A stretch of DNA of 64,000 nucleotides from Parcubacteria group bacterium. Lineage in GTDB: Bacteria > Patescibacteriota > Minisyncoccia > Phycocordibacterales > CALRBT01. The stretch covers positions 23,807-87,806 of the forward strand of contig CALRBT010000001.1 in NCBI GenBank assembly GCA_943354475.1. Reading direction: 5' to 3'. The notes below the pieces were generated by a model. That model saw nothing but the letters and a program-made list of their open reading frames with translations. It was not told where the DNA came from and did not search any database. Made by a program: the position numbers and the translations under genes. Below are positions 3,801-63,469 of the stretch, piece by piece (the stretch's first letter is position 1; the number at the start of each line of letters is the position of its first letter).

Positions 3801-3853
3801 TTTTGATCTTTGTTCTAGTACCAGAGGATCATGATTTTTGATCCTCGAATTAG

Positions 3854-3926
3854 CCAATGTAGCTCAGTTGGTAGAGCACGTCCTTGGTAAGGACGAGGTC
3901 TCCGGTTCAATCCCGGACATTGGCTC
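3854..3926 (+). tRNA. tRNA-Thr (anticodon GGT)
   Basis: Acceptor gccaatg/cattggc, D-arm gctc-agttggta-gagc, anticodon stem cgtcc/ggacg with loop ttGGTaa, T-arm tccgg-ttcaatc-ccgga. Confidence 0.85.
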
Positions 3927-3969
3927 CGCAAAAACATACTTAATTTGATTCTGTAGTAGAATAGAGTAA

Positions 3970-5067
3970 ATGCAAACAAGACTTATTCTGTTAGTGATTT
4001 CGTTTGTCTCAATGGTGGTAATTCTGACCAGCGCTTCTTATTTACACGCACATCGTCTTGAAGCTACCTTGATAAACTATAGACAAGCTAATAAAGAAAT
4101 TACACAGCCTCAGCTAAAGAAAGAAAAAATTTCTCAAAACGAAGGGGATATCTCACTTATTGCGGTTGGGGATATTATGTTATCGAGAATTGTTGCAAGT
4201 AAGATAAAGACCAACAAAGATCCTTACTATCCTTTTTTAAACACCACAGATTATTTAAGAGATGCTGACATCACCTTTGGGAATCTTGAAAATCCCATAA
4301 CCGCAGGTCGAGCCATTGAAGTACATGAAATGGTTTTTCATGCCGATCCTGGTATGGAAAAGGTGCTTGGGGACGTTGGGTTTGACGTACTCTCGCTTGC
4401 CAACAACCATTCACCAAACTTTGGAGCAAAAGGATTGATTGATACTTTTAGCTATTTAGACCAGGTTGGTGTTCTGCACCCTGGTGCAGGCAAAACTTCC
4501 AAAGAGGCAAACTCGCCGGTGTACATTACTCGCAAAGGCAAGACCTTTGCATTTCTTGCATATAACGATCCTGATGTAGTACCAAAGGAATATGAAGCGA
4601 CTGAAAAAAGAGCGGGAACGGCTTTTATGAGAAGTGAGAAAATGATTGAATCGGTAAAAGAGGCAAAACAAAAAGCAGATTTTGTTATCGTCTCAATCCA
4701 CTCTGGTAAAGAGTACACAAAGATTCCAAATACATCGCAAACCAATTTTGCACACAAAGCAATCGATGCAGGGGCTGAAATGGTTATCGGACATCACCCT
4801 CACGTTATCCAATCGGTTGAGAAGTATAATGGAAAATATATTTTGTACAGTTTGGGCAATTTTGTTTTTGATCAGAGGTGGGAAGAAACCAAGCTTGGTT
4901 TATCTGCGAAAATATTTTTTAACGAACAAGGGGTTAGAGAGATTTCATTTTTTCCGATTATGATTCGAGATTTTTCTCAACCAGAAATACTGAAAGGGGA
5001 AATTGCAACCAAAACTCTAGAGCGACTAGGTGAGCCGTTTGCACAGGGCTCGATTATTGTTCAGTAA
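3970..5067 (+). CDS. CapA/PGA_cap family metallophosphatase-like protein (poly-gamma-glutamate biosynthesis CapA homolog), N-terminal membrane anchor
   Basis: IAVGDIMLSR, GNLENP, NNHSPNFG and SLGNFVFDQ motifs typical of the CapA/YwtB family. Confidence 0.7.
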   Translation: MQTRLILLVISFVSMVVILTSASYLHAHRLEATLINYRQANKEITQPQLKKEKISQNEGDISLIAVGDIMLSRIVASKIKTNKDPYYPFLNTTDYLRDADITFGNLENPITAGRAIEVHEMVFHADPGMEKVLGDVGFDVLSLANNHSPNFGAKGLIDTFSYLDQVGVLHPGAGKTSKEANSPVYITRKGKTFAFLAYNDPDVVPKEYEATEKRAGTAFMRSEKMIESVKEAKQKADFVIVSIHSGKEYTKIPNTSQTNFAHKAIDAGAEMVIGHHPHVIQSVEKYNGKYILYSLGNFVFDQRWEETKLGLSAKIFFNEQGVREISFFPIMIRDFSQPEILKGEIATKTLERLGEPFAQGSIIVQ

Positions 5068-5156
5068 TAGATTACATAGAAAAAACGAAAAGCACGGATT
5101 CGTTTTCGGCGCGCGCAGAGCGCGCGCCTGAAACGATACCGTGCTCCTAAGTAAAC

Positions 5157-5447
5157 TCAATCGGCGTCGGGAAGTTGATATGGTATGCGTGGTTCGCGCA
5201 TAGCCTGGTCATATTCATCCAATGGATCGGTTCTGCCCGTTTCGGGAGGAACTAGCAGTACCACCTTCTCGCCACCTGTTCCGAGAGAATCCCTCAGGTC
5301 ATCAGACCCGTCTCCACTTGGGCCAACTCCAATTCCACTTGGTGAGACAGGTGATTTTTTGAGAGAATCTCCTGGCTGTTTCCCGCAGACATCGAAACCA
5401 AAACGGTCCATCGTTCGTTTTCTCCACATAGAACTTATCCAGCCCAT
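5157..5447 (-). CDS. Hypothetical protein in a GC-rich island (alternative: the overlapping + strand ORF 5185-5505)
   Basis: GC ~55% segment in which both strands are open. The minus ORF is convergent with capA and shares a hairpin region at 5080-5130; the plus ORF is followed by a hairpin at 5551-5578. Real coding strand unresolved. Confidence 0.25.
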   Translation of the reverse strand: MGWISSMWRKRTMDRFGFDVCGKQPGDSLKKSPVSPSGIGVGPSGDGSDDLRDSLGTGGEKVVLLVPPETGRTDPLDEYDQAMREPRIPYQLPDAD

Positions 5448-5550
5448 CTTCGTCCAATTTGTCCACGACCGGTTCGTGCGACAGATTGTTCGGATGCTGG
5501 TGTAAGGAAACTAATTTTGAGTTTATTTCCTTATATCAGAACCTGAAACT

Positions 5551-5590
5551 AACAAGACCCCATTTTGGTGGGGTCTTGCGGTTTGTGGTG
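5551..5590 (+). terminator. Hairpin terminator candidate
   Basis: caagacccc-attttggt-ggggtcttg followed by cggtttgtggtg. Confidence 0.45.
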
Positions 5591-5800
5591 AAATTTAAGT
5601 TATAAGTTTACCAACGCGCAAGACCCCGACTAAAGTATCGGGTAATCCATACAAAGACGTATGAAATTTGCGCTTGATGTAACATATATATAACTTACTC
5701 TCAGTGTCCGTTGGTGTCAAGTAACCTATGGTGTGGAAAAAAAAGATCAATCTCACAGCTTCCTTTGGGGGTAGAATTTTGATAAGGTGTGTTGGTGTTA

Positions 5801-5873
5801 GCCAGAGTAGCTCAGTTGGCAGAGCATTTCACTCGTAACGAAAAGGTCGGCGGTCCGATTCCGCCCTCTGGCT
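5801..5873 (+). tRNA. tRNA-Thr (anticodon CGT)
   Basis: Acceptor gccagag/ctctggc (7/7), D-arm gctc-agttggca-gagc, anticodon loop ctCGTaa (A31.C39 mismatch), T-arm ggcgg-tccgatt-ccgcc. Confidence 0.75.
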
Positions 5874-5874
5874 C

Positions 5875-6759
5875 ATGGAAAAAGAAAAAATACAAAAACG
5901 AATTACAGAAATCGAGGCGATGATGTCGGAAGGGAATTTCTGGCAGGATAAAGTCTTGGCGCAATCTCTAGTTAGAGAAATCCAAGAACTCAAAGAGCTC
6001 GAATTAACTGGCGGTGAAGGTGGGAAGTATGACAGAGGCGACGCTATTATCACCATCTTCTCAGGCGCAGGTGGGGATGACTCCGAAGATTTTTCTCGCA
6101 TCCTTCTTGAGATGTATCAGAAATACTTTCGCAAGAAGAATTGGGATGTTCGGGTAATCCATAGCAACGAGAATGACCACGGTGGGTATCGCAACATTAC
6201 TATTGAAATCCACGGTCGCGGTGTCTACGGCACAATCAAACACGAGTCTGGAGTGCATCGTCTGGTGCGCATCTCACCCTTTAATGCTAAGAAGCTTCGA
6301 CACACTTCGTTCTCGATGGTCGAGGTTATTCCAAAATTTGAAAAAGTAGATGAGTTCGTTATTCCTGAAGATGAGATTGAGGTAACGATGGCACGCTCGA
6401 GTGGTCCTGGAGGACAAAATGTTAATAAACGCGAGACTGCTGTCCGTATGGTGCATTTGCCAACCAAACTCTCGGTTCATGTCGAATCAGAACGCTCGCA
6501 GGCACAGAACAAAGAGAAAGCGCTTGAAATCCTCGGTGCCAAAATATATCGACTTCAAGAGGACGAGCGAATTGCAAAAGAGAAAGGAATGTATATCAGT
6601 AAAACAACCGACGCAGCGTGGGGAAATCAGATACGCTCCTATGTAACCCATCCGTACAAAATGGTCAAAGATCACCGAACCAATGTTGAGGTGAACAACG
6701 TAGAGAAAGTGTTTGACGGAGAAATCGATGAATTCATCGAAGCAGAAAAAGCTTTATAA
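5875..6759 (+). CDS. prfB: Peptide chain release factor 2 (SPF and GGQ motifs); short N-terminus, no programmed +1 frameshift site
   Basis: SPFNAKK (RF2 tripeptide motif), SGPGGQNVN, and a 'HRLVRISPF' / 'TNVEV' core. The ATG lies 2 nt after the tRNA discriminator, and an in-frame TAA inside the tRNA prevents any upstream extension. Confidence 0.85.
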   Translation: MEKEKIQKRITEIEAMMSEGNFWQDKVLAQSLVREIQELKELELTGGEGGKYDRGDAIITIFSGAGGDDSEDFSRILLEMYQKYFRKKNWDVRVIHSNENDHGGYRNITIEIHGRGVYGTIKHESGVHRLVRISPFNAKKLRHTSFSMVEVIPKFEKVDEFVIPEDEIEVTMARSSGPGGQNVNKRETAVRMVHLPTKLSVHVESERSQAQNKEKALEILGAKIYRLQEDERIAKEKGMYISKTTDAAWGNQIRSYVTHPYKMVKDHRTNVEVNNVEKVFDGEIDEFIEAEKAL

Positions 6760-6813
6760 AGTAAGACAGAAATCAGCTTGTTTTAATGTACGTTACGCTA
6801 TAAAATATAAAGA

Positions 6814-7494
6814 ATGATTTATTATGACAATGTGTCAAAGATCTATAAGGATGACTCCGTTATTCTTGATTCAATCAGTTTTGGTATAGAGCCAAAAGAA
6901 TTTGTTTCAATTGTTGGTCCATCGGGCGCCGGCAAGACAACACTCCTTAAGATGCTCATTGCTGAAGAAAAGCCAACATCAGGTAAGGTGTTTTTTGAAT
7001 CGACCGATGTTCACAACCTTTCTCGCTCAGATATTCCCAGGTATCGTAGACGTGTTGGGATGATATTTCAGGACTTTAGATTGATCCCCAACAAGACGGC
7101 CTATGAGAACATTGCCTTTGCAATGGAGGCAGCTGGACGAAGTGATGAAGAGATTCAGTCTGATGTGCCACACGTTCTTGAGTTGGTTGACCTCGCTGAC
7201 AAGATTTGGCATTTTCCTCATCAGCTCTCGGGAGGTGAGAAACAGCGTGTCGCTATTGCTCGTGCAATCGTTAATCAGCCAGATGTACTCATTGCAGATG
7301 AACCAACGGGGAATCTTGATCCGTTTAATACCTATGACGTGGTTCAAATTTTGCGGAAGATTAACGACCTTGGAACCACAGTTATCCTGACAACACATAA
7401 CAAAGGCATTATCGACTCTCTCGGCAAACGTGTTATCACGATAGAAAAAGGGAGGGTCGTACGAGACGATGCTGAAGGAAAATACGTCTTGTAA
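6814..7494 (+). CDS. ftsE: Cell division ATP-binding protein FtsE (ABC ATPase)
   Basis: Walker A GPSGAGKTT, signature LSGGEKQR, Walker B VLIADEPTGNLD; followed by ftsX. Confidence 0.85.
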   Translation: MIYYDNVSKIYKDDSVILDSISFGIEPKEFVSIVGPSGAGKTTLLKMLIAEEKPTSGKVFFESTDVHNLSRSDIPRYRRRVGMIFQDFRLIPNKTAYENIAFAMEAAGRSDEEIQSDVPHVLELVDLADKIWHFPHQLSGGEKQRVAIARAIVNQPDVLIADEPTGNLDPFNTYDVVQILRKINDLGTTVILTTHNKGIIDSLGKRVITIEKGRVVRDDAEGKYVL

Positions 7495-7524
7495 ATTTAA
7501 TTTTTTATATAATCAAAACTATCC

Positions 7525-8463
7525 ATGTTTAAATTGAGCGCGCAGAGAGTACTAAAAGCAGGATTCGTTAACTTTTGGCGAAACGCCTTCGTCTCTGTTT
7601 CAGCAATGCTTGTGATGACCATAACCCTCTTTACGATGGGTTCTCTTATGTTTCTTGGGGCCGTGCTCAACTCCTCACTTCTCCAGATAAAAGAAAAGGT
7701 AGACATCAACATTTACTTTCTTACGAGTGCTTCTGAATCAAGAATTCTCTCACTTAAGGAAACAATCGATGCGCTTCCACAGGTTGAATCCACCACCTAT
7801 CGTTCAAGAGAAGAGGCTCTGGAGAATTTCAAGAAACGTAACCAAGACGATCAGCTCGTTCTCCAAGCACTCGATGAATTAGGGGGCAATCCACTTGAGG
7901 CGGTGCTTAACGTGAGAGCTAAGGACCCATCTCAGTACGAGGCGATTTATAATTTTCTAAAACCATACATTGTCGGCCCAACTAATGCCACTGAAATCCA
8001 GGGTCAAATCATCGAGAAAGCAAACTTTAACCAGAATAAAACATCAATCGAAACACTCACTAAGGTTATCAATTCATCTCGAACGCTCGGTACTGCAATC
8101 TCCATTATCCTTATCATTATCTCAACTCTAATTGCCTTCAACACCATCCGTTTGGCGATTTACAGCAGTAAAGATGAGATTGCTGTTATGAGGCTTGTCG
8201 GTGCCAGCAATATGTTCATTCGCGGGCCGTTCATTGTGGAGGGTTCGATGTACGGACTATTCTCGGCACTTTTTGTCCTCATCATTTTCTACCCATTACT
8301 CTACTGGATTGGTCCATATAGTGCAGGGTTCTTCGGAGGGCTCAACCTCTTTACCTACTATCTTCATAATTTCCTCGAGCTCTTCGTTATCCTCGTAGGT
8401 TCAGGAGTCATCATTGGTGCTATTTCGAGTTTCCTTGCTGTCCGCAAATACCTCTCTGCTTAA
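7525..8463 (+). CDS. ftsX: Cell division permease FtsX
   Basis: N-terminal TM helix, large periplasmic domain, three C-terminal TM helices with the typical FtsX 'AVMRLVGAS' motif region; adjacent to ftsE. Confidence 0.8.
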   Translation: MFKLSAQRVLKAGFVNFWRNAFVSVSAMLVMTITLFTMGSLMFLGAVLNSSLLQIKEKVDINIYFLTSASESRILSLKETIDALPQVESTTYRSREEALENFKKRNQDDQLVLQALDELGGNPLEAVLNVRAKDPSQYEAIYNFLKPYIVGPTNATEIQGQIIEKANFNQNKTSIETLTKVINSSRTLGTAISIILIIISTLIAFNTIRLAIYSSKDEIAVMRLVGASNMFIRGPFIVEGSMYGLFSALFVLIIFYPLLYWIGPYSAGFFGGLNLFTYYLHNFLELFVILVGSGVIIGAISSFLAVRKYLSA

Positions 8464-10648: not shown

Positions 10649-10719
10649 TGCGGGATCGTCTAATGGTAGGACACATCCCTCTGGAGGATGGTATCTAGGT
10701 TCGAGTCCTAGTCCCGCAG
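10649..10719 (+). tRNA. tRNA-Gln (anticodon CTG)
   Basis: Acceptor tgcggga/tcccgca, 3-bp D-stem gtc/gac, anticodon stem catcc/ggatg with loop ctCTGga, T-arm ctagg-ttcgagt-cctag, discriminator G. Confidence 0.8.
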
Positions 10720-10788: not shown

Positions 10789-10871
10789 CCACCATATGCT
10801 AAGTCAGGAGACTGACACGCATAGGCATCTATTCCGAAAATGGCATACCTGCTGAGAGCAGTATTCAAGAC

Positions 10872-10904
10872 AAAAAAGTCGCCCCGAAATAGGCGACTTT
10901 TTTG
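10872..10904. terminator. Bidirectional terminator hairpin
   Basis: aaaaaagtcgcc-ccgaaatag-gcgactttttt. Confidence 0.6.
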
Positions 10905-11120
10905 TTATTCTATCGTTACCTTTTTATCCTTCAAAAATAGTTTGCTTTGTAAGCATCCCAGCAGTTCGCGCTTCTCAATCAGTGTCCCTTCTCTGAGTAA
11001 ATACTTTGTGTAATTTCTCACATCTACATCGATAGCGATTTTATCTTGCTTGTGTCCCAGAACTCCCGATCTAAGTTTGTTGAATAGTCTTATCTCCTTA
11101 TAAAAGCTACACTTGAGTGT

Positions 11121-16891: not shown

Positions 16892-16964
16892 AGATTAATT
16901 ATACATCACTATCTAACCAAAAGTATCTTCGCCAGAATTTCCATCATTTAAATTACTTGTTATT

Positions 16965-17396: not shown

Positions 17397-17420
17397 GATT
17401 TTAGATGGTATACTTACTTT

Positions 17421-20403: not shown

Positions 20404-23400
20404 ATGAAGTTTTACCCTACAAAGGGAAGTAGCGCAGGAAAACTAACAATGAGCCTCCTGCTCATTTCACTAGCTTTTTCTCCATGGGTAGGGGTATATG
20501 CAGAAGTAAATTCAGCCACTTCTACAACAATCATTGAGGAAGTTAAGTCCTCTAATACACCAGCTAACCCGACTCCAGAAGTAGTTACAGCCGAAACCTC
20601 GACCCCTGTTAGATTAATTGACCCAGTGGTAAGTACTTCAAGTCCAAGTACCCCCTCTCAAAAAGAATCTGAGCAAAAACTTTCACCTCCCGAAGAGTCA
20701 ACAGTAAATATCTCCACAACAACTCCCCAAAGAGAGGTTTTTAAAAAAGAAGTTGAGGAACCTAAAGAGCCAAAAGAAAAAGTAAAATTTAAAAAGGACG
20801 CCAGTAGATCACAAGAAGAAGAGTTGGGGTTGGTCCGTCAACATTTACTTGATCAGGGATTACCACAAACAATCGTTGATCGTTTGGATACTTACGAAAA
20901 AGAACAACGAGCAGGTCCTCCTCAAGAAGGAATCTTTAAAAAGATAGTCAATTTCGTCACGGGTAATACTGAAGCACAGAAAGAAGCACGAGAAGTCGAA
21001 GTTCTGGCCAAGAAACAACCTTTCAAGGTAGAAGGCTTTGAAGGGACTATTAATAAAATTGATGAATCAAGCTACAAGCAGCTTTTTCCTGATAAGAAAG
21101 AACAGACCAATGGATTTTTTGAAAAAGTAAAAACTTTCCTCAAGAGTGGTTCTTCTTTGAATTCAGATTTTGATGGAACTAAAAAAAGTACGCCACTCTC
21201 TTGGCTTTTTGGTGCAAAAGTGACTGCGCAAGTAAGCTCAAATCCAAATGATTATCTTGCTGCTGGAGGAGAGATAGTTTTCTCTAAGGCGATACAGGAT
21301 AAAGCCGTGACTCTCGGAGGTGATCCATTGGCTATGTTGAATTTTGTTCGCAATGATGTCGAATACACCCCTTACTTTGGTTCAAAGAAAGGATCCGATG
21401 CGACACTGGTAGAAAGTGCTGGTAATGACATGGACAAGGCTTCGCTTCTGGTTGCATTGCTACGCAATAGTGGTATTCCCGCAAGGTACAGACATGTCGA
21501 TGCCCAGATGGATATCAGGACAGTTACCGATTTGCTCGGAGTTGACTCTGCCATCGGTGCAGCACAAGTACTTTCTCTCCATAAAATACCTTACATACTC
21601 TATACACAGAACGATGAACCAGTTTTCTTTGTTGTTGAACATACCTATGTTGAAGCATATATGCCGTATGGATATAGTCGTGGTGCGAAATTAAATGACG
21701 GTGGATCCAAGCAATGGGTGCCGATGGACCCAACGATTACTGGGTATTATTACGAAAGACCTGTTGATCTCATCGACGAAATGAATAACTCAGGCTTTGA
21801 TGTTAAAGTATTTTTTGATAAATATCTAAAAGGGGATTATGGTTCTGCCATAGAACCACTTGAAGCTTTTAAAACCCTGGTACAGGGTCACTTGGCATCA
21901 AATCCGCCGGCGTCCTTTCCAGGACTAACCTACGATGATGCACTGATGCGCATGTATCCAAAAAATCAAGATACTGCTTTCATTCCAGCTACTTTGCCAT
22001 ACCAGATTTCTGCAGATCTTAATACGTATGATTACATTCCAGCTTCGCTACGCCATACACTTAAATTTACAGTAAAGAGTGATCAGGATGCCCAGGTACT
22101 TGGACATAGCGCATATCTCTCCGATCTCGCCAATAAAGAATTGCTCATCACCTTTGATGCCGCGACCCCAGTCGATCAGGCTACTATCGACTCCTTTGAC
22201 ACGATTTATGACGTTGTTCCGTTATCTTTGGTGTCGGTTACTACAAAAATAAAAGTAAACGGTGTGAATATTGCAGAAAGTGCGACACCCACCACTCTTG
22301 GAAAATCACAAAAGTATGTGATGGAGTTTGGAATACCAACTCGAGAGATTGGAGGCCCCGTTAACGCACTTGTTGAAGAGACTATCGACAAGAGTATTAT
22401 TGTAGGAAATACGGATGCAATCGGTCTTGATACTGGGCGTGTTGTACCTTCTGGACTTCGACCAAAGGAGGATATAGCAACTTCTAGTTTTGTTTCAGGC
22501 CAGATACTCTATGATACAGCTCAGGATTACCTCTACCGTCTCGAAAATACAGAAGGTGAATTGGCACGGATTATCGGAGCTGATTTTAGTGACGTTGCAA
22601 CGAGAGCAATTATTTTTAATGGAATTGCAGTGACTAATAAGAATGGCCAACCATATTCATTTGATTGGAAAGGACTTCGTATTGATGCATCCGCAAAGGT
22701 GAAGTACTTCAGTAGATTCCATGAAAGTGTTAAAACACACAAAAAAGAGTTCACTGCAGTATTTGGTCTACAAGCATCTCAAGATGAATCAGATGTCTTT
22801 GAAGATAATTTTGACGTCGAATCGGTTGCTACTGTCAAAGGATTAAAGTTGGTATCTGCGAATACTTTTAGTGGTATTACACTGAAAAAAATCAATCAGA
22901 CGAATGAAGGTGATATTGATGGACTTAACGTTACGGCGAGCACAAAAAACGTTTTCCATAGCGCTATTCAAGAAGGAAATACTATCTACACACCAACCGC
23001 TCCTATTACCTATGGTGCTTGGCACGGTCTCTTTTATATCAACATTGACTTTGATGGCGGAGAAGCCAGTTATAGTATCGGCGAAGGGCTCAATGGGGGA
23101 TATACCGTTTGTGGACTTCCAGGAATCACAAGTTTTTGTAATTGGGTTCAAGATCGGGTGGACTACTTAAGAAAAGATACCCCCATTACAAATGCCACAA
23201 TCATCTCTCCTACTAATAACCAAAATTACACAGTAGGCGATTCAATTAACTTTGAAGTTCAATACAAAACTATTGTTAACGGCGCGACCCTTAGTCAGTG
23301 GATAGAAAAGGAAACTATCAAGACTGATAATCTTGGACCAGGGACGAGGACTCTGATAACTAAATATGGAACTGGGGTGAAAGTAAACATCAAACTCAAT

Positions 23401-24192
23401 CCTAAGCCTGATCTGGGCTTGTCACTTAAGATAAACACAGCTACACAGAGTGCTGAGCAGAAATTTATCGAAGGGTTCATGGACGAGATCGCCACAGAAT
23501 ATGGTGTTGAAATCACTAATTTCCTAGCAGGTGTTGGTATCTCTGAAGGTATTCGTATGCTAACTCCTGCGATTGCAAAAAAAGTTGGCCCAACGGCTGC
23601 TGGTAAAATTGTAGCCAGGTTCATTCCAGGGGTTGGTTGGGTGTTGCTCGTCGGCTCTGCCGGAAGTATTGCATACAATGCAGGACCGACTGCTGGCAAA
23701 TGTTTTAGTTTTAGTAGTTCAATGGACGACCTGCTTTTGGAAACAAAATCTCCTTCATATTTCTGTGGCAAACTAACCGCTCAGTCTCTTTTTATTGCCG
23801 CTGGAGTGGGGACAGATAGGTTAGTGGGGAGTAAAATTAGCCATTATTTTGCAAGAAAAATTGGGATAAATACAATTATACGAAGCGCTCTTCAAACTGA
23901 GGTACGGTCATCGTTAGAATTGTACGAATTAAATAACTGGTCAAATGCTGGGAGGAGTAGTGGAACTCATGTTGGAGCGGAGTGGTTTAATAAGATAGAT
24001 TCAAATACAGGTAAAAACTATTTGCCAAACACCACAACTTATAAAGAATACGATGTATATGACAAAATCGAAGGGCAAAATAGAGGCCCACACAGATTTG
24101 TAAAAGGAGAAGATGGATCTATATATTTTACAGATAATCACTATGGTGATCCAACAGTTAATAATAGCCCCCCGTTCGTAAAAGTAGACTAA
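20404..24192 (+). CDS. Secreted polymorphic toxin: signal peptide, S/T/P/E/K-rich linker, transglutaminase-like domain (Cys replaced by Asp), C-terminal barnase-like ribonuclease domain
   Basis: TGase-like core GNDMDKASLLVALLRNSGIPARY, then His in VVEHTYVEAY and Asp in WVPMDPT. The C-terminus aligns to barnase: TYKEYDVYD~READINY, PHRFVKG~SDRIL, IYFTDNHYGDPT~IYKTTDHYQTFT. Confidence 0.7.
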   Translation: MKFYPTKGSSAGKLTMSLLLISLAFSPWVGVYAEVNSATSTTIIEEVKSSNTPANPTPEVVTAETSTPVRLIDPVVSTSSPSTPSQKESEQKLSPPEESTVNISTTTPQREVFKKEVEEPKEPKEKVKFKKDASRSQEEELGLVRQHLLDQGLPQTIVDRLDTYEKEQRAGPPQEGIFKKIVNFVTGNTEAQKEAREVEVLAKKQPFKVEGFEGTINKIDESSYKQLFPDKKEQTNGFFEKVKTFLKSGSSLNSDFDGTKKSTPLSWLFGAKVTAQVSSNPNDYLAAGGEIVFSKAIQDKAVTLGGDPLAMLNFVRNDVEYTPYFGSKKGSDATLVESAGNDMDKASLLVALLRNSGIPARYRHVDAQMDIRTVTDLLGVDSAIGAAQVLSLHKIPYILYTQNDEPVFFVVEHTYVEAYMPYGYSRGAKLNDGGSKQWVPMDPTITGYYYERPVDLIDEMNNSGFDVKVFFDKYLKGDYGSAIEPLEAFKTLVQGHLASNPPASFPGLTYDDALMRMYPKNQDTAFIPATLPYQISADLNTYDYIPASLRHTLKFTVKSDQDAQVLGHSAYLSDLANKELLITFDAATPVDQATIDSFDTIYDVVPLSLVSVTTKIKVNGVNIAESATPTTLGKSQKYVMEFGIPTREIGGPVNALVEETIDKSIIVGNTDAIGLDTGRVVPSGLRPKEDIATSSFVSGQILYDTAQDYLYRLENTEGELARIIGADFSDVATRAIIFNGIAVTNKNGQPYSFDWKGLRIDASAKVKYFSRFHESVKTHKKEFTAVFGLQASQDESDVFEDNFDVESVATVKGLKLVSANTFSGITLKKINQTNEGDIDGLNVTASTKNVFHSAIQEGNTIYTPTAPITYGAWHGLFYINIDFDGGEASYSIGEGLNGGYTVCGLPGITSFCNWVQDRVDYLRKDTPITNATIISPTNNQNYTVGDSINFEVQYKTIVNGATLSQWIEKETIKTDNLGPGTRTLITKYGTGVKVNIKLNPKPDLGLSLKINTATQSAEQKFIEGFMDEIATEYGVEITNFLAGVGISEGIRMLTPAIAKKVGPTAAGKIVARFIPGVGWVLLVGSAGSIAYNAGPTAGKCFSFSSSMDDLLLETKSPSYFCGKLTAQSLFIAAGVGTDRLVGSKISHYFARKIGINTIIRSALQTEVRSSLELYELNNWSNAGRSSGTHVGAEWFNKIDSNTGKNYLPNTTTYKEYDVYDKIEGQNRGPHRFVKGEDGSIYFTDNHYGDPTVNNSPPFVKVD

Positions 24193-24893: not shown

Positions 24894-27800
24894 TTGTTAA
24901 TTAATTATATGAAACTAATCAAAGTACAGCAAAATATTTTCCCGAAGATTGTCGTTGTATTTCTAATGGTCAGTCTTTTGGTAACACCCCTAACACCACT
25001 CTCAGCTCAGGGTGTAGACCAATTGGAGCAAAACAAAGCTGTGCAGAGTCTGGTACAGAAACGTCCACTTGCTCAGGTGATAGATATTCCAGAAGTTATT
25101 ATTGGTACAAGCACTGTTGCTAATATTTCTCTGGTTGATTGGGATCAAAAAATAGAAGTTGGTGGAAAAAAAGTTTCGCTCAGTTCTGAAGAAGGACTTG
25201 CTTCAATTGAGCTTTCTCCAGTTATTCAAAAACTTGTAGAAGCATATCATGGAGACATCACTTCAATTGAGAGTGCACTTTTTGCACCCTCTTCTTTAAA
25301 GCTTGAGAAGAAGAAACATGCTACTGAAGCACTTCAGTATGGCATTGCACAGAGTCTTATTGAGGAAGGATTACTCCCTAATGATTACTTCGAGCTATTG
25401 GCACAAGGGTTTATTGAGCCTGCCGACAATCTTATAGACGCAAAGAAAGCTTTTATTAAAAAGCCAGGAGCGATAAAAGCAATGAAAGCCGAGGTTGTTC
25501 CCGAAGTAACTATTGTGGATATTACAACAGTGGAGGGGGGTCAGATTAACAAGAATAAGGAAAAGTCTTCACCTCTTGGATCATTATGGAATACAGTCAC
25601 AGGTATCGTTTCAGATATCGGAGGCTTTGTTGGTAATCAGTTTGCAAAATCCGGAACCGCTTCCAAGACGGCCGAGGTAAGTGGCACTTCTAATGGTATT
25701 ACAGAATCTTCTGCTGCACTGATCTCTGGTAACGCTTCAGCCCAGAGTGCTTTACAGTATCTTGTTAGTCATCAAAACACGGATGGTTCTTGGGGTAGTG
25801 GAAATTCTTTACTTACAACGACGAGTGCAGTACTTGATGCGCTCGACGTCTATGGCGAGATTGGGCCTGAATACCAAAAAGGAATCACTTGGATTGAATC
25901 GTACATTACTGATAACAACGACTATCGTGCTCAACAAGCTAAACGATTGGCACGAGCAGGTAGGACTATAAGTGAGTTGGAGTCGATTGCTAGTACCATA
26001 GACGATTCAACCGGAGGATTTTCATATGATGTTGGTTACCAAGCTGATCCAGCAACAACTGCTAAAGTGCTACAGGCACTCACTGAAGCAGGTTTTGAAG
26101 ATTCCGGGTCTAGTCCACGAGCCACGAGAACGCTTGCTCTCTATTATCTTACACAAACACAGCGGTTCGATAAGGGATGGAGTCTCTTTGATGATGGTGC
26201 TAGTTCTCTACCTGTAACAACGGATGTTATTAACGCACTTTTGCCCTACAAAGGTCAGTCGTTGCTCGGGGTTGGTTCTTCTAAAATCGTCATTGATTCC
26301 ACGATTAAACCTGCTCTGGATTCACTTAAGGCAACACAAATGTCCGATGGTAGCTGGGGTGGTGATCTGCTCAATACAGCAGTTGTTGTGCAGACGTTAA
26401 AGAAAGGAAAGACGGCCGCGACCTATGCACGTGAATCAATTTCGTATTTAGAAAATGCACAAGGGGTTGATGGAAGTTTTGGTGGGGGTGACATCTATCT
26501 AACAGCACAAGTGCTCAAGGCACTCGCCACGCCAGAACCCTCTGTTGGTAATCTCGCAGTTACCGACATTGCATCAACTAACCCCTTACAAACAAGAACT
26601 CCTGCGGGAATCAAGATTACGATAACAAACAGCGGTGACTTAGTGGCTAACAGCGGAATACTCCACCTTGTTGCTGACCACTATCTTATGGGGTCATTCA
26701 ATCTTGCAAGTAGTAGTCTCGTTATTAATCCACACACTTCGGCACAAATTACCGTTAATATTTCAAACACGGCTGGATATGTCGGGGATGTTGCCTTCGA
26801 TGCTTTCATTGAGGGAGTGGGGGATGTAATCTATGCTTCCTCGCGTTACCAGAAAACACTAACCTTTGCCGAAGACCCAACACACCTCCCAGGACTTCCA
26901 ATTTATTTTACTGCTCAGAAACATATTATTGACGGACAACCAGCTCTTAATGTTCGTTGGGGTAAGAAAAGTGATCCTAATCGACTTAATTACCTCATTA
27001 TGTGGCGAGTGGTAGGGGAAACGTCTTGGAATACTTATCCTATCGCCAATGATAAAAATGGTGCTTTCATTTCTCCTTATGTTGAGGATCAACTGTATGA
27101 AGTAACGGTTGGGGCCGTCACAGCGGATGGCACAAAGTATACTTACTATAGCTCTCCGGTTCAGGTAAGAGTAAGTGCTGATGCCAATAAATACACCTCA
27201 GGAACGGTCTCGGGTACGATGAGAGATGTTAATGGTCCGGTTGGAAATATAAGTCTCCTGGCTGGTGGTGATTTTGCAACCGTCGATGCGGATGGAAATT
27301 TCAATCTCACCCACGTTCCTTACGGAAAAGGTTGGGTCAGGGCGTCGAATTTTCGATACGAGGATTATGTTACGACGTTCAAAACTTCTGATAGTACTGT
27401 GATAAACCACAAAGCATACACGAACCTCGTACCGGATATCGCAACCCCAACGATTACTTATTTTGCCATGGCAAACGAAGCCGATTATAAAATGGAGAAT
27501 CTGGAAACGAAGTTCATTCATCTCGGAGTCGCTGACGATATTGGCATAACTGGCACAGGGATTGTTGCCAGTGCGAGTTTCTCCTATTATGATCCTCACG
27601 ATTCAACTTGGCACTCGATTGGGACAATGCAAGGTCCGCTCTCGAGCACTGTTGGATATTCGTGGAATGTTCCAGGCACTTTGTTTGGTCCAGGATACAA
27701 AATCAGAGCAACGATTCGAGATTATAGTGGTAAAGAGTCCGAGCCGACAGAATGGGGGCCATTTGAATTTACTCAAGGAAACGCAACACCAGAATTTGCT

Positions 27801-29534
27801 TTCGTAACCCCGCTATCAGCCACCACAACAGTCGCTGACCTTAGTCATACTATTGTCTGGACTGATAACGATAATGATGACAATGCCAGAATCTTACTTT
27901 CATATGACCCTGATGACACGCTAGATAATGTAAATCATACAAACATCACCACATTGTATGAAGACGATGTCGTTGATCAGTATATCTGGGACACATCAAA
28001 TATTCCCGAAGGCACTTATTATCTTTTCGCACTTGTTAGTGATAACCATAATGCCAATCAGGTGATCCATTCTCCTCAAAGGGTTACTATCACACACAGC
28101 GCACCAACTCCTCCATCCCTCTTACGTGCTGAAGGAAAAACAAATCCAACCAATATTACTGACCCAACTCCAGAATTCTCGGCAGTTTACAATGATCTCA
28201 ATGTAGGGGATGTGGCAAAGAAATATCGTATCCAGGTGGCAACATCGACCACGTTTACGTCAACAAAATGGGATTCAGGAATGGCCCTACTTGCGAGTTC
28301 AACCCCCCGAGGATTCCGTACCAAGGATATATCGTATACAGGTTCTTTGCTTGCGTCGAGTACACCATATTACTGGCGTATCAAGTTCTGGGATACAGCG
28401 GGTAGCGAAGGTTCGTGGAGTACTACGACAGCTTCTTTTTCACTTGCCCCATCAACTAATAGTTCTCCTACACCTCCAACATCACTACAAGTTGAAGGAA
28501 AAGCGAATCCAGTCACTATCACTAATCCACTACCAAAGTTTTCAGCAGTATATAACGATCTTAACTTAGGAGATCAAGCAAAGAAATATCAAATCCAAGT
28601 AGCAACCTCCACCACTTTTGTATCGACAAAATGGGATTCGGGAATGAAAGTTCTTGCAACCTCGACTCCTCGAGGTGGGCGTATTCAAAGCGTTACCTAC
28701 AATGGCTCGTCTCTCGCCTCAAGTACTCAGTATTATTGGCGTATAAAACTATGGGATGCAAATAGTAATGAAGGTGCGTGGAGTACTACGACAGCAAGCT
28801 TCTCTCTAGCTGCCTCTACGAGTAAGCCACCTCTTGCACCAACAGAGCTTCGCACTGAAGGCCTAGTAGACCCAATCAATGTTACCGACTCAACCCCAGA
28901 GTTCTCAGCTGTGTACAACGATCCAAATATTGGGGATATGGCAAAGAAATATCAAATCCAAGTAGCAACCTCTACAACTTTCACTTCTCTTGCATGGAAT
29001 TCAGGCACGGTATTACTTGCAACCTCAACCCCTCGAAGTGGTCGTACATACGCCATTGCATATACCGGATCAACACTTGCATCAAGCACAACCTATTATT
29101 GGCGAATAAGATTGTGGGATACTGCCGGTAACGAAGGTTTGTGGAGCACGACAACTGCTAGTTTCTTGTTATTGCCAAAAAACAATATTCCAACCGCTCC
29201 GACATCACTACAAACCGAAGGGTTGACTAATCCAACCAACATTATCGACTCAACCCCGGATTTCTCTGCAATATATAACGATGTTGATCTTGGTGACCTT
29301 GCAAAACGGTATCGTATCCAAGTATCGACCTCAACAACATTTTCGACTCTAAAATGGGATTCAGGAACCACTCTACTTGCAAGTTTAACGCCGATAGGTT
29401 CGCGTATTACGGACGTTTCCTACAGTGGCTCGTCTCTCGCCTCAAGCACAACCTATTATTGGCGTATTAGATTTTGGGATACTAGAGAGGGTGGTGGCGC
29501 TTGGAGTAGTAGATCGTCATTCTCTCTAAAATGA
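24894..29534 (+). CDS. Very large surface protein: signal/TM anchor, squalene-cyclase/prenyltransferase-like alpha-alpha toroid repeats, CARDB-like and carboxypeptidase-regulatory-like domains, five tandem FN3-like repeats
   Basis: QNTDGSWG, SDGSWGG and GVDGSFGG repeats; NSGDLVANSG (CARDB-like); five ~105-aa repeats each carrying YYWRI(K/R)(F/L)WD...G.WS. Confidence 0.7.
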   Translation: MLINYMKLIKVQQNIFPKIVVVFLMVSLLVTPLTPLSAQGVDQLEQNKAVQSLVQKRPLAQVIDIPEVIIGTSTVANISLVDWDQKIEVGGKKVSLSSEEGLASIELSPVIQKLVEAYHGDITSIESALFAPSSLKLEKKKHATEALQYGIAQSLIEEGLLPNDYFELLAQGFIEPADNLIDAKKAFIKKPGAIKAMKAEVVPEVTIVDITTVEGGQINKNKEKSSPLGSLWNTVTGIVSDIGGFVGNQFAKSGTASKTAEVSGTSNGITESSAALISGNASAQSALQYLVSHQNTDGSWGSGNSLLTTTSAVLDALDVYGEIGPEYQKGITWIESYITDNNDYRAQQAKRLARAGRTISELESIASTIDDSTGGFSYDVGYQADPATTAKVLQALTEAGFEDSGSSPRATRTLALYYLTQTQRFDKGWSLFDDGASSLPVTTDVINALLPYKGQSLLGVGSSKIVIDSTIKPALDSLKATQMSDGSWGGDLLNTAVVVQTLKKGKTAATYARESISYLENAQGVDGSFGGGDIYLTAQVLKALATPEPSVGNLAVTDIASTNPLQTRTPAGIKITITNSGDLVANSGILHLVADHYLMGSFNLASSSLVINPHTSAQITVNISNTAGYVGDVAFDAFIEGVGDVIYASSRYQKTLTFAEDPTHLPGLPIYFTAQKHIIDGQPALNVRWGKKSDPNRLNYLIMWRVVGETSWNTYPIANDKNGAFISPYVEDQLYEVTVGAVTADGTKYTYYSSPVQVRVSADANKYTSGTVSGTMRDVNGPVGNISLLAGGDFATVDADGNFNLTHVPYGKGWVRASNFRYEDYVTTFKTSDSTVINHKAYTNLVPDIATPTITYFAMANEADYKMENLETKFIHLGVADDIGITGTGIVASASFSYYDPHDSTWHSIGTMQGPLSSTVGYSWNVPGTLFGPGYKIRATIRDYSGKESEPTEWGPFEFTQGNATPEFAFVTPLSATTTVADLSHTIVWTDNDNDDNARILLSYDPDDTLDNVNHTNITTLYEDDVVDQYIWDTSNIPEGTYYLFALVSDNHNANQVIHSPQRVTITHSAPTPPSLLRAEGKTNPTNITDPTPEFSAVYNDLNVGDVAKKYRIQVATSTTFTSTKWDSGMALLASSTPRGFRTKDISYTGSLLASSTPYYWRIKFWDTAGSEGSWSTTTASFSLAPSTNSSPTPPTSLQVEGKANPVTITNPLPKFSAVYNDLNLGDQAKKYQIQVATSTTFVSTKWDSGMKVLATSTPRGGRIQSVTYNGSSLASSTQYYWRIKLWDANSNEGAWSTTTASFSLAASTSKPPLAPTELRTEGLVDPINVTDSTPEFSAVYNDPNIGDMAKKYQIQVATSTTFTSLAWNSGTVLLATSTPRSGRTYAIAYTGSTLASSTTYYWRIRLWDTAGNEGLWSTTTASFLLLPKNNIPTAPTSLQTEGLTNPTNIIDSTPDFSAIYNDVDLGDLAKRYRIQVSTSTTFSTLKWDSGTTLLASLTPIGSRITDVSYSGSSLASSTTYYWRIRFWDTREGGGAWSSRSSFSLK
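28090..29530 (+). repeat. Coding tandem repeat (~315-bp unit x ~4.5) encoding the FN3-like modules
   Basis: Recurrent caatccaac...acccc(a/g)gaattctc(g/a)gc...tattggcgtat segments. Confidence 0.7.
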
Positions 29535-36978: not shown

Positions 36979-37027
36979 TCTTGTGGGTAAATTTTAATCA
37001 AAAGGTTCTTTCTGCTATACTATTTTT

Positions 37028-38637: not shown

Positions 38638-39279
38638 ATGAAAATCACAAAATTAGGGCACTGCTGTCTACTCATTGAAACGAAGAATAAAAGGATTTTG
38701 ACCGATCCGGGAACCTTCTCAACCGTGCAGGATGGTTTGAAGGATATTGATATTGTACTGATTACTCACGAACACGCTGATCATTTCCACCTTGATTCTC
38801 TAAACCGAATACTTACCTTAAACCCACAAGTGGCGATTGTAACCAACAGCGCTGTTGGCGCGCTACTCACCAAAGAAGAAATACCGTTTATTCTGCTAGA
38901 GGGAATAGATTCGGCAATCGTTTCTGAACTTCCTTTTGAAGCATTCGACTCTAAGCATGAGGAGATATTTGAAGAGATTGGTCAGGTTCAGAATACTGGT
39001 TATTTTATTGACGGACGTTTGTTTTATCCAGGAGATTCGTTTGCTGATCCCAAAAAGCAGGTAGAAATTCTAGCGCTTCCTATTGCGGGGCCATGGTGCA
39101 AACTCGCAGATAGTATTCGCTATGCGCTCAAGATAAAACCCACCAAGGCATTCCCTGTCCATGATGGGATGATTCAAGAAGATAAACTGAGCTCAAGTCA
39201 TGGAATTGCAGGGATGGTTCTGGGACAAAGGAATACAGAATTTACACAACTCAAGGCCGGAGAAACTGTTGAATACTAA
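38638..39279 (+). CDS. MBL-fold metallo-hydrolase
   Basis: ITHEHADH motif. Confidence 0.65.
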   Translation: MKITKLGHCCLLIETKNKRILTDPGTFSTVQDGLKDIDIVLITHEHADHFHLDSLNRILTLNPQVAIVTNSAVGALLTKEEIPFILLEGIDSAIVSELPFEAFDSKHEEIFEEIGQVQNTGYFIDGRLFYPGDSFADPKKQVEILALPIAGPWCKLADSIRYALKIKPTKAFPVHDGMIQEDKLSSSHGIAGMVLGQRNTEFTQLKAGETVEY

Positions 39280-40136: not shown

Positions 40137-40536
40137 ATTTATCAATAGTTCACCCTATAAATCAACAACACCCCAAACCGGAGTGCGATTAAGGGTGGAA
40201 TGGTGTAGCACAAAATGTGCTTAGTATAAAAAAGAACAAAAGCGATGTTCGTCGCCGTCGGGACAGGCCCGACGGCTTCGAATTCGATGACCTCGAACCA
40301 GGTCAGCCGACGGCACCGACGTAGCCACTGGCCGTGGTCGAGTCGTGCGCCGTGACGAGGCGCCGATGAACCGTTGCCAGGTGACGGGCCATTGCGATCG
40401 TCGCGGCGTCTTGATCGATACTGAACCGTTTTTTTGTCAACTAATTAAACTGTTGATAATCGCAGTGCGTTTTTCGGATCCTGGAAGCATAAACATGTTT
40501 GTTTTGTTCGCCTAAAACTTTGTTATACTCAACACA

Positions 40537-43020: not shown

Positions 43021-43111
43021 TACAGACTAATAGTACTGAAAATAGAGTGAATTACAAATATAAGGAGCTGTGATAAAATACAAGGAACGTTACTAATACC
43101 TAACTTTATTT

Positions 43112-57810: not shown

Positions 57811-57876
57811 TCCTTATGAGTTAGCACTTAGAGTAAGTTTTGACTCAAAACTCCATCTGAGCTATACTACGTACCT

Positions 57877-60456: not shown

Positions 60457-61437
60457 ATGGCTGTTATCGACTTAGAAATTTACAAAAAAAATCACAAGAC
60501 GCAGTATTTAGCCGAAAGTTTTGAGCGTCTGCTTAAAGAGCGCGTCCAGATAGAAACTGAACTTGCCAAAGATCCTGAATTCAAAGAATTAGCCGAAGAA
60601 GAATTTAAAAATATTGACGCACAACTAACAGCTCTTGAGGGTCAGATGGCTAAGATTATTGAAGAAGACAAAGAGGAAGAGGACTTTCCAAATGAAATTG
60701 TCCTTGAAGTCAGGGCTGGTACTGGTGGAGAAGAAGCGGCCTTTTTTGCTGAGAAATTGGCGGAGATGTACCAACGTTTCGCTGAATCCAAGGGTTGGCA
60801 ATGGAAGACGATGTATGAATCACGCAGTGCCCTTGGAGGATTCAAGGAGGCATCCTTTGAGTTTCGTGGCAAAGACATTTATCGCAAACTCCGCTTTGAG
60901 ACAGGGGTGCATCGTATCCAACGAATTCCCGCAACCGAGAAATCTGGCAGAGTTCACACGTCGACCGCTTCAGTTGCTATTTTGCCCATTAGGATAAAAA
61001 GCAAAATTGAGATTAATCCATCAGACATTGAAATGGAGTTTTCTCGCTCAGGTGGTGCTGGCGGACAGAATGTGAACAAGGTTGAAACTGCAGTACGTCT
61101 CATTCACAAACCGACAGGAATTGATGTTCGTTCGACCGCAGAGCGTAGCCAGCAGAAGAACCGGGAAAAGGCGATGGGAATTTTGATAGCAAAGCTAGAA
61201 GTTCTTAAAGAGGAAGAAGAAGCCAAAAAACACGCCTCAAATCGGAAAAGTCAGATTGGTACTGCAGATCGATCAGAGAAAATCCGCACCTATAATGTAT
61301 TGCAAGACCGCGTCACCGATCACCGCATTAGAGAATCTTGGCATAACATCGAAGGTATTTTTGCAGGGGATATTGAAGATATTGTCGAGAAACTGAACAG
61401 TGCCGATGAATTCAGCGAAGAGTCTTCAGAGGAGTAA
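60457..61437 (+). CDS. prfA: Peptide chain release factor 1
   Basis: PAT tripeptide motif (RIPATE), GGQ ([10 protein letters not shown]), RSQQKN. Confidence 0.85.
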
Positions 61438-61503: not shown

Positions 61504-61532
61504 TTGCCTAGTTTGGCTTAATTTGCTATGCT
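61504..61532 (+). promoter_or_regulatory. Sigma70-like promoter candidate for rpsB (TTGCCT-17 bp-TATGCT), near-leaderless
   Basis: -35 at 61504-61509, -10 at 61527-61532, ATG at 61542. Confidence 0.4.
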
Positions 61533-61541
61533 CTTTAGGTC

Positions 61542-63384: not shown

Positions 63385-63457
63385 GCCGCCTTAGCTCAGT
63401 TGGTAGAGCAACGGTTTTGTAAACCGTAGGTCCCCAGTTCAAGCCTGGGAGGCGGCT
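63385..63457 (+). tRNA. tRNA-Thr (anticodon TGT)
   Basis: Acceptor gccgcct/aggcggc, D-arm gctc-agttggta-gagc, anticodon stem acggt/accgt with loop ttTGTaa, T-arm cccag-ttcaagc-ctggg. Confidence 0.85.
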
Positions 63458-63469
63458 CCGTAATAAGGG

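Follow-up and report, generated by a model that had tools for sequence, protein, structure and literature searches.

A tRNA-Thr gene one nucleotide ahead of prfB in a Parcubacteria genome, and how its 3' processing may free a leaderless release factor 2 mRNA

Our analysis of a 64,000-nucleotide (nt) stretch of DNA from a Parcubacteria group bacterium (assembly GCA_943354475.1, contig CALRBT010000001.1, positions 23,807 to 87,806; hereafter the window, whose first letter is position 1) finds that prfB, the gene for release factor 2 (RF2), starts a single nucleotide after the end of a tRNA-Thr(CGT) gene. We consider it rather probable that the two genes are co-transcribed and that 3' processing of the tRNA would free a prfB mRNA which is leaderless, an idea already voiced in a preliminary description of this DNA and, on our data, supported rather than proven. 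The interpretation is considerably likelier because signals of leaderless expression run through the whole clade, because prfB carries an extended -10 box in most relatives, and because the same junction, GGCU-C-AUG, recurs among them with compensatory changes in the tRNA.

The tRNA gene occupies 5801-5873 on the forward strand, where Rfam RF00005 scores 62.6 bits (E 4e-12) and ARAGORN calls a tRNA-Thr(CGT) at 5801-5874, and covariation among relatives (see below) agrees with both. Reading the sequence, the 3' strand of the acceptor stem, CTCTGGC, has its last base at 5872, T5873 is the discriminator (U5873 in the RNA), CCA is not encoded, and a lone C at 5874 (+), tRNA position 74, is all that separates the discriminator from the prfB ATG at 5875-5877. 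Every statement on the sequence in the preliminary description, the tRNA end and the ATG included, is reproduced here, with the sole adjustment that exactly one nucleotide lies between these two, so this is a coding start within 0-3 nt of a genuine tRNA. The nearest upstream stop in the prfB frame is a TAA at 5836-5838 (+), within the anticodon loop, and starts farther upstream are therefore excluded, just as the preliminary description had claimed. Between tRNA and prfB neither a promoter nor a terminator would fit, and the 20 nt 5' of the ATG (5855-5874, CCGATTCCGCCCTCTGGCTC) hold none of GGAG, GAGG, AGGA or TANNNT, which agrees with the earlier view that prfB has neither a Shine-Dalgarno (SD) sequence nor room for a promoter. 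With no TANNNT in these final 20 nt, a promoter within the tRNA gene itself was rejected as well; nor does the window prfB show the geometry of promoter-derived leaderless genes, in which about 6-7 nt separate the end of a -10 hexamer from the A of the start codon. Structure prediction retains the cloverleaf arms, and its centroid leaves some 60 A-rich nt downstream of the AUG without pairing partners.

Other tRNA genes of the window lie at 18-92, 671-745, 3853-3925, 10649-10719 and 63385-63459. The full CCA is encoded only by the first tRNA-Met among them, while the rest, that at 5801-5873 included, have C or CC after the discriminator and then an unrelated base. An A-C mismatch at the last pair of the anticodon stem (31-39) is seen in four of 14 aligned tRNA-Thr(CGT) genes, including that of the window.

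That the junction is an assembly artefact, a chimera or the relic of a decaying pseudogene is vanishingly improbable to us. An assembly error, a concern that the preliminary description had itself raised, is rejected by an independent ENA assembly (L085) in which junction and sequence are identical to the window. At least four JGI samples (L081-L084) contain a relative, its RF2 87% identical, in which tRNA and prfB are likewise juxtaposed, here with two bases between them (GGCT-CA-ATG). Comparison of its tRNA (L081) with that of the window shows compensatory substitutions, G-C to A-T in the acceptor stem and others in the anticodon stem; a further 18 loci have the arrangement too. Against decay stands an intact open reading frame (ORF) in which the SPF (S134-P135-F136) and GGQ (G179-G180-Q181) motifs are invariant across 36 aligned homologues.

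Relatives were surveyed at 80 species-representative GTDB loci and 74 analysable metagenome loci. Most have a strong extended -10 box (TGnTAnnnT, as TGnTATAnT in relatives without the abutment) 6-8 nt before the same prfB ATG (examples are tgatatactgaaaatATG, tgctataatctctagcatATG and tggtatacttgcatatATG; our script flagged such a box in 34 of the 74 metagenome loci), and prfB in relatives would typically be the first gene of a leaderless transcript. The linkage between tRNA-Thr(CGT) and prfB is old: it is the nearest upstream tRNA on the same strand in 54 of the 80 GTDB loci, or 55 if L038, where the contig end cuts the tRNA, is counted. Abutment of the two genes with no promoter between them occurs at nine of 80 GTDB loci (L001, L014, L028, L030, L036, L038, L039, L055, L066) and nine of 74 metagenome loci (L087, L090, L092, L097, L109, L119, L132, L144, L153; L092 and L014 appear to be one organism), a frequency of about 11-12% of related species. 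Seventeen of these junctions could be parsed, and 13 of them read U-C-AUG, usually as GGCU-C-AUG; U-CA-AUG, U-CC-AUG (here CCA overlaps the AUG), U-CCA-AUG and U-U-AUG account for the remainder. Eleven further loci have spacers of 2-12 nt, again with no SD sequence. Since a C also follows the discriminator in 57 of 58 tRNA-Thr(CGT) genes that do not abut prfB, the tRNA gene, judged by this conservation, would effectively extend to C74 and the ATG would come directly next. The trailers of this tRNA in the clade read CCA in 19 and C-A-N in 27 of the 58.

The RF2s of abutting species are 60-77% identical and scattered on a neighbour-joining tree of RF2, which speaks against monophyly of the abutment; the tree is weak, and repeated origin and repeated loss would both fit it. 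The cloverleaf of the abutting tRNAs is kept, with compensatory changes at 16 of 21 pairs over 14 loci. In some relatives another gene intervenes and it is this gene whose ATG adjoins or comes close to tRNA-Thr(CGT), at 0 nt in L019 (2229-2305), 2 nt in L015 (177-257), 3 nt in L060 (2464-2543) and 6 nt in L065 (1203-1287), and in L073 (1018-1101) a tRNA-Asp is followed by an ATG at 6 nt. As ATGs of other genes adjoin tRNAs in this way, the abutment is not specific to prfB. A tRNA-Thr(GGT) gene lies adjacent to tRNA-Thr(CGT) in L001, L009, L011, L028, L144 and L153. In the window these two genes are about 1.9 kb apart (3853-5873), and the stretch between them, which holds a PGA_cap-family gene (3970-5067) and a region at 5157-5505, looks like an insertion.

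Leaderless expression of prfB would fit well with how genes in this clade seem to be read. Among ATG-start genes of the window, an SD-like tetramer at proper spacing is found in only five of 53, and a TANNNT ending 5-9 nt before the ATG in 22 of 53 (10 at a control offset). Counting genes in the 80 GTDB loci gives the same picture on a larger scale: 137 of 298 genes carry TANNNT 5-9 nt ahead of the ATG, compared with 31 at the control offset, the distance of the box from the ATG has a sharp peak with 24% at exactly 6 nt, a spacing that places the A of the ATG at +1, and SD tetramers are at background (23 genes against 20). With prfB excluded and an upstream gap of at least 40 nt, TANNNT is found before 71 of 181 genes (31 at control) and the extended box TGnTAnnnT before 31 (5 at control). 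From such spacing, shared by about 40% of genes, leaderless mRNAs appear to be a major mode of expression in the clade, with SD pairing rarely used. Boxes of this sort in the window (TATAAT-like, often TGnTAnnnT, 6-9 nt before an ATG and without SD) lie at 3951-3969, 6801-6813, 17404-17420, 37012-37027, 40520-40536, 57859-57876 and 61523-61541 on the forward strand and at 16892-16908 and 43021-43038 on the minus strand; the genes behind them include a PGA_cap-like gene (3970), ftsE (6814), those for L25 (57877) and S2 (rpsB, 61542), and argS (43020, minus). A clear GGAGG precedes only a few window genes (3011, 13698, 19478).

How might a prfB without promoter and SD sequence be expressed? We envisage that an extended -10-type promoter just 5' of the tRNA would yield a single transcript of tRNA-Thr(CGT) and prfB, whose short 5' leader would be trimmed by RNase P, and that an endonucleolytic cut at the tRNA 3' end would split the products, either after U5873 in the manner of RNase Z or after C5874. 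On precursors lacking CCA, RNase Z cuts behind the discriminator, and the trailer keeps a 5' phosphate, which leaderless translation in Escherichia coli requires. The freed prfB mRNA would begin with (C)AUG and carry such a phosphate, and would be translated by the 5'-terminal-AUG route that a large share of the organism's genes seem to use. With the acceptor stem folded just 1 nt before the AUG, the uncleaved precursor should be barred from the mRNA channel, in which case cleavage would act as an activation step, and because CCA is not encoded an endonucleolytic 3' cut would be needed anyway. Output of prfB would then be tied to the tRNA promoter and to tRNA processing in place of frameshift autoregulation (see below). 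While the junction itself, its conservation, the translated N-terminus and the spacing between -10 boxes and ATGs can be read directly, we infer co-transcription, the position of the cut, the nuclease and leaderless translation itself from these patterns.

The putative promoter comprises TAGAAT (5772-5777) and an extended -10-like element, TGATAAGGT (5780-5788), 12 nt before the tRNA 5' end on the forward strand; the block TTTTGATAnnGT is conserved as TGATACTGT in L081, and other abutting loci have similar -10-like boxes ahead of the tRNA or tRNA pair. Several observations nevertheless weigh against our proposal. A strict two-hexamer sigma-70 scan of the forward strand between 5000 and 7600 returned nothing, and the promoter assignment upstream of the tRNA is a weak one. 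A search for the HxHxDH motif did not find RNase Z in the 64-kb window; the only protein with that motif, at 38638-39279, is a 213-aa Lactamase_B_3 member and unconvincing as RNase Z. If the 3' end matured exonucleolytically after a cut farther downstream, that cut would fall inside prfB. Extra 5' nucleotides reduce leaderless translation in E. coli, and a cut after U5873 leaves one. The 5' monophosphate of a processed mRNA would in addition make it a substrate of RNase J, which members of the candidate phyla radiation (CPR) keep, along with RNase III and PNPase, among their conserved core RNases (PMC12641178).

These same nucleases could be enlisted for a different scheme, in which each transcript gives rise to either a mature tRNA or a prfB mRNA and the abutment works as a competitive switch: a transcript cut inside prfB and then trimmed exonucleolytically would give the tRNA, and one cut within the tRNA or at the junction would give the mRNA. 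The core set of RNase J, RNase III and PNPase and the failure to see RNase Z in the window would suit such either-or processing, as would L036, where the encoded CCA shares its A with the AUG and both products cannot keep that base. We nonetheless regard it as quite improbable, since 13 of the 17 parsed junctions leave exactly C74 between the products, so that one cut can serve both, and since a CCA-adding step is required regardless where CCA is not encoded.

A last point against processing-dependent translation comes from relatives rather than from the window, which lacks the feature. In 10 of the 17 abutting loci the last 12 nt of the tRNA, in its 3' acceptor strand, hold GGAG or GAGG 6-7 nt from the ATG, and an SD-type route on the unfolded precursor may operate in the GAGG-bearing species. 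More generally, prfB could be translated from a precursor that is uncleaved or processed only at its 5' end, by internal initiation at the A-rich start region, with the tRNA as a 5' stabiliser and, in some relatives, with the 30S subunit loading on the GAGG of a melted 3' acceptor strand. The unpaired A-rich 60 nt after the AUG would favour such entry, and 5' structures do shield mRNAs from RNase J-type decay. Yet SD-like acceptors are missing from the window tRNA and from L028, L097, L109, L132, L144 and L153, and they are not clearly enriched in abutting tRNAs (10 of 17) compared with non-abutting ones (23 of 58); on both counts an SD hidden in the acceptor strand was rejected for the window. 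SD use is rare in the clade, an acceptor stem folded 1 nt from the AUG could hardly enter the mRNA channel, and the strict 1-nt spacing would be left unexplained. So internal initiation seems unlikely to us, and we prefer the reading in which excision of the tRNA releases the prfB message.

For that reading it matters which ATG starts prfB, and from the pattern of N-terminal codons over 81 loci the start is the first ATG, at 5875. Upstream of M17 the encoded amino acids are kept although the codons vary synonymously: Glu is present in 80 of the 81 loci (GAA in 50, GAG in 30), Ile in 68 through three codons, and Lys or Arg in 65 through several. In 66 of the loci the first start codon lies 19-23 codons ahead of an invariant FW motif, and homology links residues 4-41 to the first retained helix of long RF2s, which in those proteins is internal. 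One might instead place the true start at the conserved Met16 or Met17 (5920/5923) behind a GAGG (5913-5916), which would provide a 45-48 nt 5' untranslated region and a protein of 278-279 aa. M17 is indeed present in 80 of 81 loci, the GAGG lies 3-6 nt upstream in the window, and one public gene call (P0002) has 278 aa. But this GAGG is just a pair of Glu-Ala codons, with GAGTCC in its place in the 87% relative; constraint at the amino-acid level extends to the codons upstream of M17, whose counterpart in long RF2s is residues 27-39, and those proteins have an internal Met where M17 stands; and the -10 boxes of relatives stand 6-8 nt before the first ATG, not before M17. A start at M16/M17 is accordingly one we strongly doubt. 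Public calls for this gene and a close relative disagree, with 294 aa (first ATG), 278 aa (Met17) and 320 aa (P0001-P0003), and the 320-aa entry of the 87% relative (P0003) is an artefact that translates through the tRNA (N-terminus ...AQLVEH...GGPIPPFGS).

Counted from the first ATG to the TAA stop at 6757-6759, prfB (5875-6759, +) encodes a short-form RF2 of 294 aa, the length stated before. TIGR00020 (RF2) is the best model with 332.2 bits (RF1 221, prfH 90), and residues 38-290 match its profile positions 99-350 of 353. The score stays under the curated full-length cut-off of 370 owing to a reduced domain 1: nothing aligns to profile positions 1-98, and Pfam PCRF is matched only at positions 95-194 of 194, so that a complete domain 1 is not found. 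RF-H, an RF2-like protein of some 200 aa that has no domain 1 and is linked to rtcB, was rejected as an identity, as TIGR03072 gives 90 bits against a cut-off of 166.65 and the neighbours are ftsE and ftsX rather than rtcB. An AlphaFold (AF2) model (predicted local distance difference test score, pLDDT, 77.5) matches the RF2 crystal structure 1gqe with a template modelling (TM) score of 0.77, and Foldseek returns RF2 structures as top matches.

Against a solved RF2 of 366 aa (9fy1), residues 4-41 correspond to 27-64 and residues from about 45 onward to those from about 115 onward, while residues 1-23 and about 65-112 of the solved protein are skipped. Going by this alignment, the shortfall of about 70 aa is made up of an N-terminal loss of about 23 aa and an internal deletion of about 45-50 aa in domain 1, which agrees with the size of the reduction given in the preliminary description and refines it into two separate losses. 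What remains of domain 1 (5875-6009, +) are, by the 9fy1 alignment and AF2 secondary structure, two predicted helices (residues 2-17 and 26-45). Comparison with RF2 homologues, which had been suggested as a check, shows the short protein to be the norm in the clade: hundreds of homologues have 290-300 aa, a length shared by nearly all of the best 120 of 8000 found in the database, which come from Paceibacteria, Parcubacteria or Patescibacteria records. RF1, encoded by prfA at 60457-61437 (+), is short as well (326 aa; its match to the profile begins at position 41 and scores 358 bits, the cut-off being 400), so domain 1 is reduced in the two class-I release factors of this organism alike.

In E. 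coli the prfB frameshift involves an in-frame UGA at codon 26 (10.1101/2024.09.24.614795). The window has nothing comparable, as CTTTGA occurs nowhere in 5400-6800 and the three frames upstream of prfB contain only the tRNA and short ORFs unrelated to RF2, with neither an ORF0 nor CUU-UGA-C; the earlier statement that a +1 frameshift site is missing thus stands. An upstream exon or a frameshifted N-terminal segment, which that description had proposed to look for in homologues, was ruled out by the three-frame translation, by the absence of CTTTGA and by the relatives' promoters at the same ATG: all 154 analysable homologous loci have a single-frame prfB ORF with the same N-terminus. Across the clade, RF2 is short and prfB has no frameshift site. 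By alignment, the N-terminal piece that RF2 has lost is the segment which canonical prfB encodes before the frameshift site, and the absence of frameshifting would thereby belong to one and the same truncation. Several phyla are known to have lost the prfB frameshift, a loss linked to high UGA usage (10.1101/2024.09.24.614795). Stop codons of the 63 predicted window genes are TAA in 40, TAG in 16 and TGA in seven, and this low use of TGA, the RF2-specific codon, despite a prfB with no frameshift runs counter to that trend (10.1101/2024.09.24.614795), albeit in a small sample.

Downstream, prfB is followed on the forward strand by ftsE (6814-7494) and ftsX (7525-8463; 6814-8463 together), identified by NCBIfam FtsE (270.6 bits, above cut-off) and FtsX_Gpos (197.7 bits), and the order prfB-ftsE-ftsX is conserved. 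Judged by a -10-like TAAAAT (6801-6806) with 7 nt to the ATG (6801-6813, +), ftsE probably has a leaderless promoter of its own. Upstream of the tRNA lie a perfect 10-bp hairpin (5553-5562/5569-5578), with an alternative pairing to 5612-5634 (23 nt, 78%), and an AT-rich palindrome (5679-5698); the blocks CCAACnCGCAAGACCCC and ACATATATATAAnTTACTC from these regions (5553-5634 and 5679-5705) are conserved in L081. These elements might be the terminator of the upstream gene or a small RNA. A permissive Rfam scan around the locus gave only tRNAs and sub-threshold noise. Beyond the tRNA-Gln, at 10827-10975, Rfam matches on both strands fall far under gathering thresholds (Thr_leader 27 bits, STnc230 31 bits, sraL, RcsR1), and this cluster is probably compositional noise. 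Two giant ORFs are reminiscent of the very large surface proteins that CPR genomes commonly encode: one at 20404-24192 (1262 aa) has a transglutaminase-like core, and one at 24894-29534 (1546 aa) has four Ig_Rha78A_N repeats along with a stretch weakly similar to squalene-hopene cyclase.

Should our interpretation be true, a bacterial mRNA would be made translatable by the excision of a tRNA, a principle that is textbook for mitochondria, and it would concern an essential translation factor and recur across a large uncultivated lineage. The data also provide sequence-level evidence that Paceibacteria lean heavily on leaderless initiation and little on SD pairing, which bears on gene calling, and the reduced domain 1 in both class-I factors bears on termination and on release factor recycling on the reduced ribosomes of CPR bacteria. 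A bolder version, which we put forward tentatively, sees here the Paceibacteria counterpart of mitochondrial tRNA punctuation: a precise cut at position 73/74 would be indispensable for converting an untranslatable tRNA-mRNA precursor into a leaderless message, would serve prfB time and again (in about 11-12% of species) as well as other genes that come to lie behind the same tRNA, and would replace RF2 frameshift autoregulation, whose segment would have been lost exactly up to the new start.

How does this compare with known systems? The window gene is an ortholog of canonical prfB by best model match, by its SPF and GGQ motifs and by prfB-ftsE-ftsX synteny. It differs in that ORF0, the internal SD, CUU-UGA-C and the frameshift are all absent and that it starts at about the point where the canonical gene resumes after the shift, with about 45-50 further residues deleted from domain 1. 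A precedent for co-transcription is E. coli thrU-tyrU-glyT-thrT-tufB, in which tRNA genes share a transcript with a translation-factor gene. As at thrT-tufB, a tRNA-Thr gene lies directly 5' of the gene for an essential translation factor, whose synthesis would be tied to a stable-RNA promoter; unlike window prfB, however, tufB follows a spacer of about a hundred nt and has a normal SD sequence, and its mRNA is not leaderless. With leaderless mRNAs that arise at promoters, as for lambda cI or in Actinobacteria and Deinococcus (PMC4633059, PMC4681348), window prfB has in common that no SD is present and that the AUG would be at or next to the 5' end, and in its clade many genes, prfB of most relatives among them, do have the -10 box 6-7 nt before the ATG. 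Window prfB, by contrast, lacks this box, and its 5' end is predicted to come from processing and to bear a monophosphate rather than a triphosphate.

The closest parallel is tRNA punctuation in mitochondria, reportedly described by Ojala, Montoya and Attardi in 1981 and said to involve cleavage by RNase P and RNase Z/ELAC2. In the literature we searched, whose coverage is incomplete, we found no report of tRNA-punctuated leaderless mRNAs in bacteria, and a likewise incomplete search on leaderless translation in CPR, Patescibacteria or Parcubacteria and on RF2 in Patescibacteria gave nothing relevant. As in mitochondria, tRNA and coding sequence lie back to back, tRNA 3' excision would be expected to create an mRNA 5' end with a leader of 0-1 nt, and the translation system seems already able to handle leaderless mRNAs. 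Unlike mitochondria, this is a free-living or episymbiotic bacterial lineage in which the cleavage is predicted from sequence, only one of the six window tRNAs abuts a gene (so punctuation is not general), no tRNA is found at the 3' end of prfB, and most genes appear to obtain leaderless 5' ends from promoters. With these differences in mind, a prfB that abuts a tRNA, usually across a 1-nt junction, and whose leaderless mRNA is apparently made by processing may represent a new, bacterial form of tRNA punctuation.

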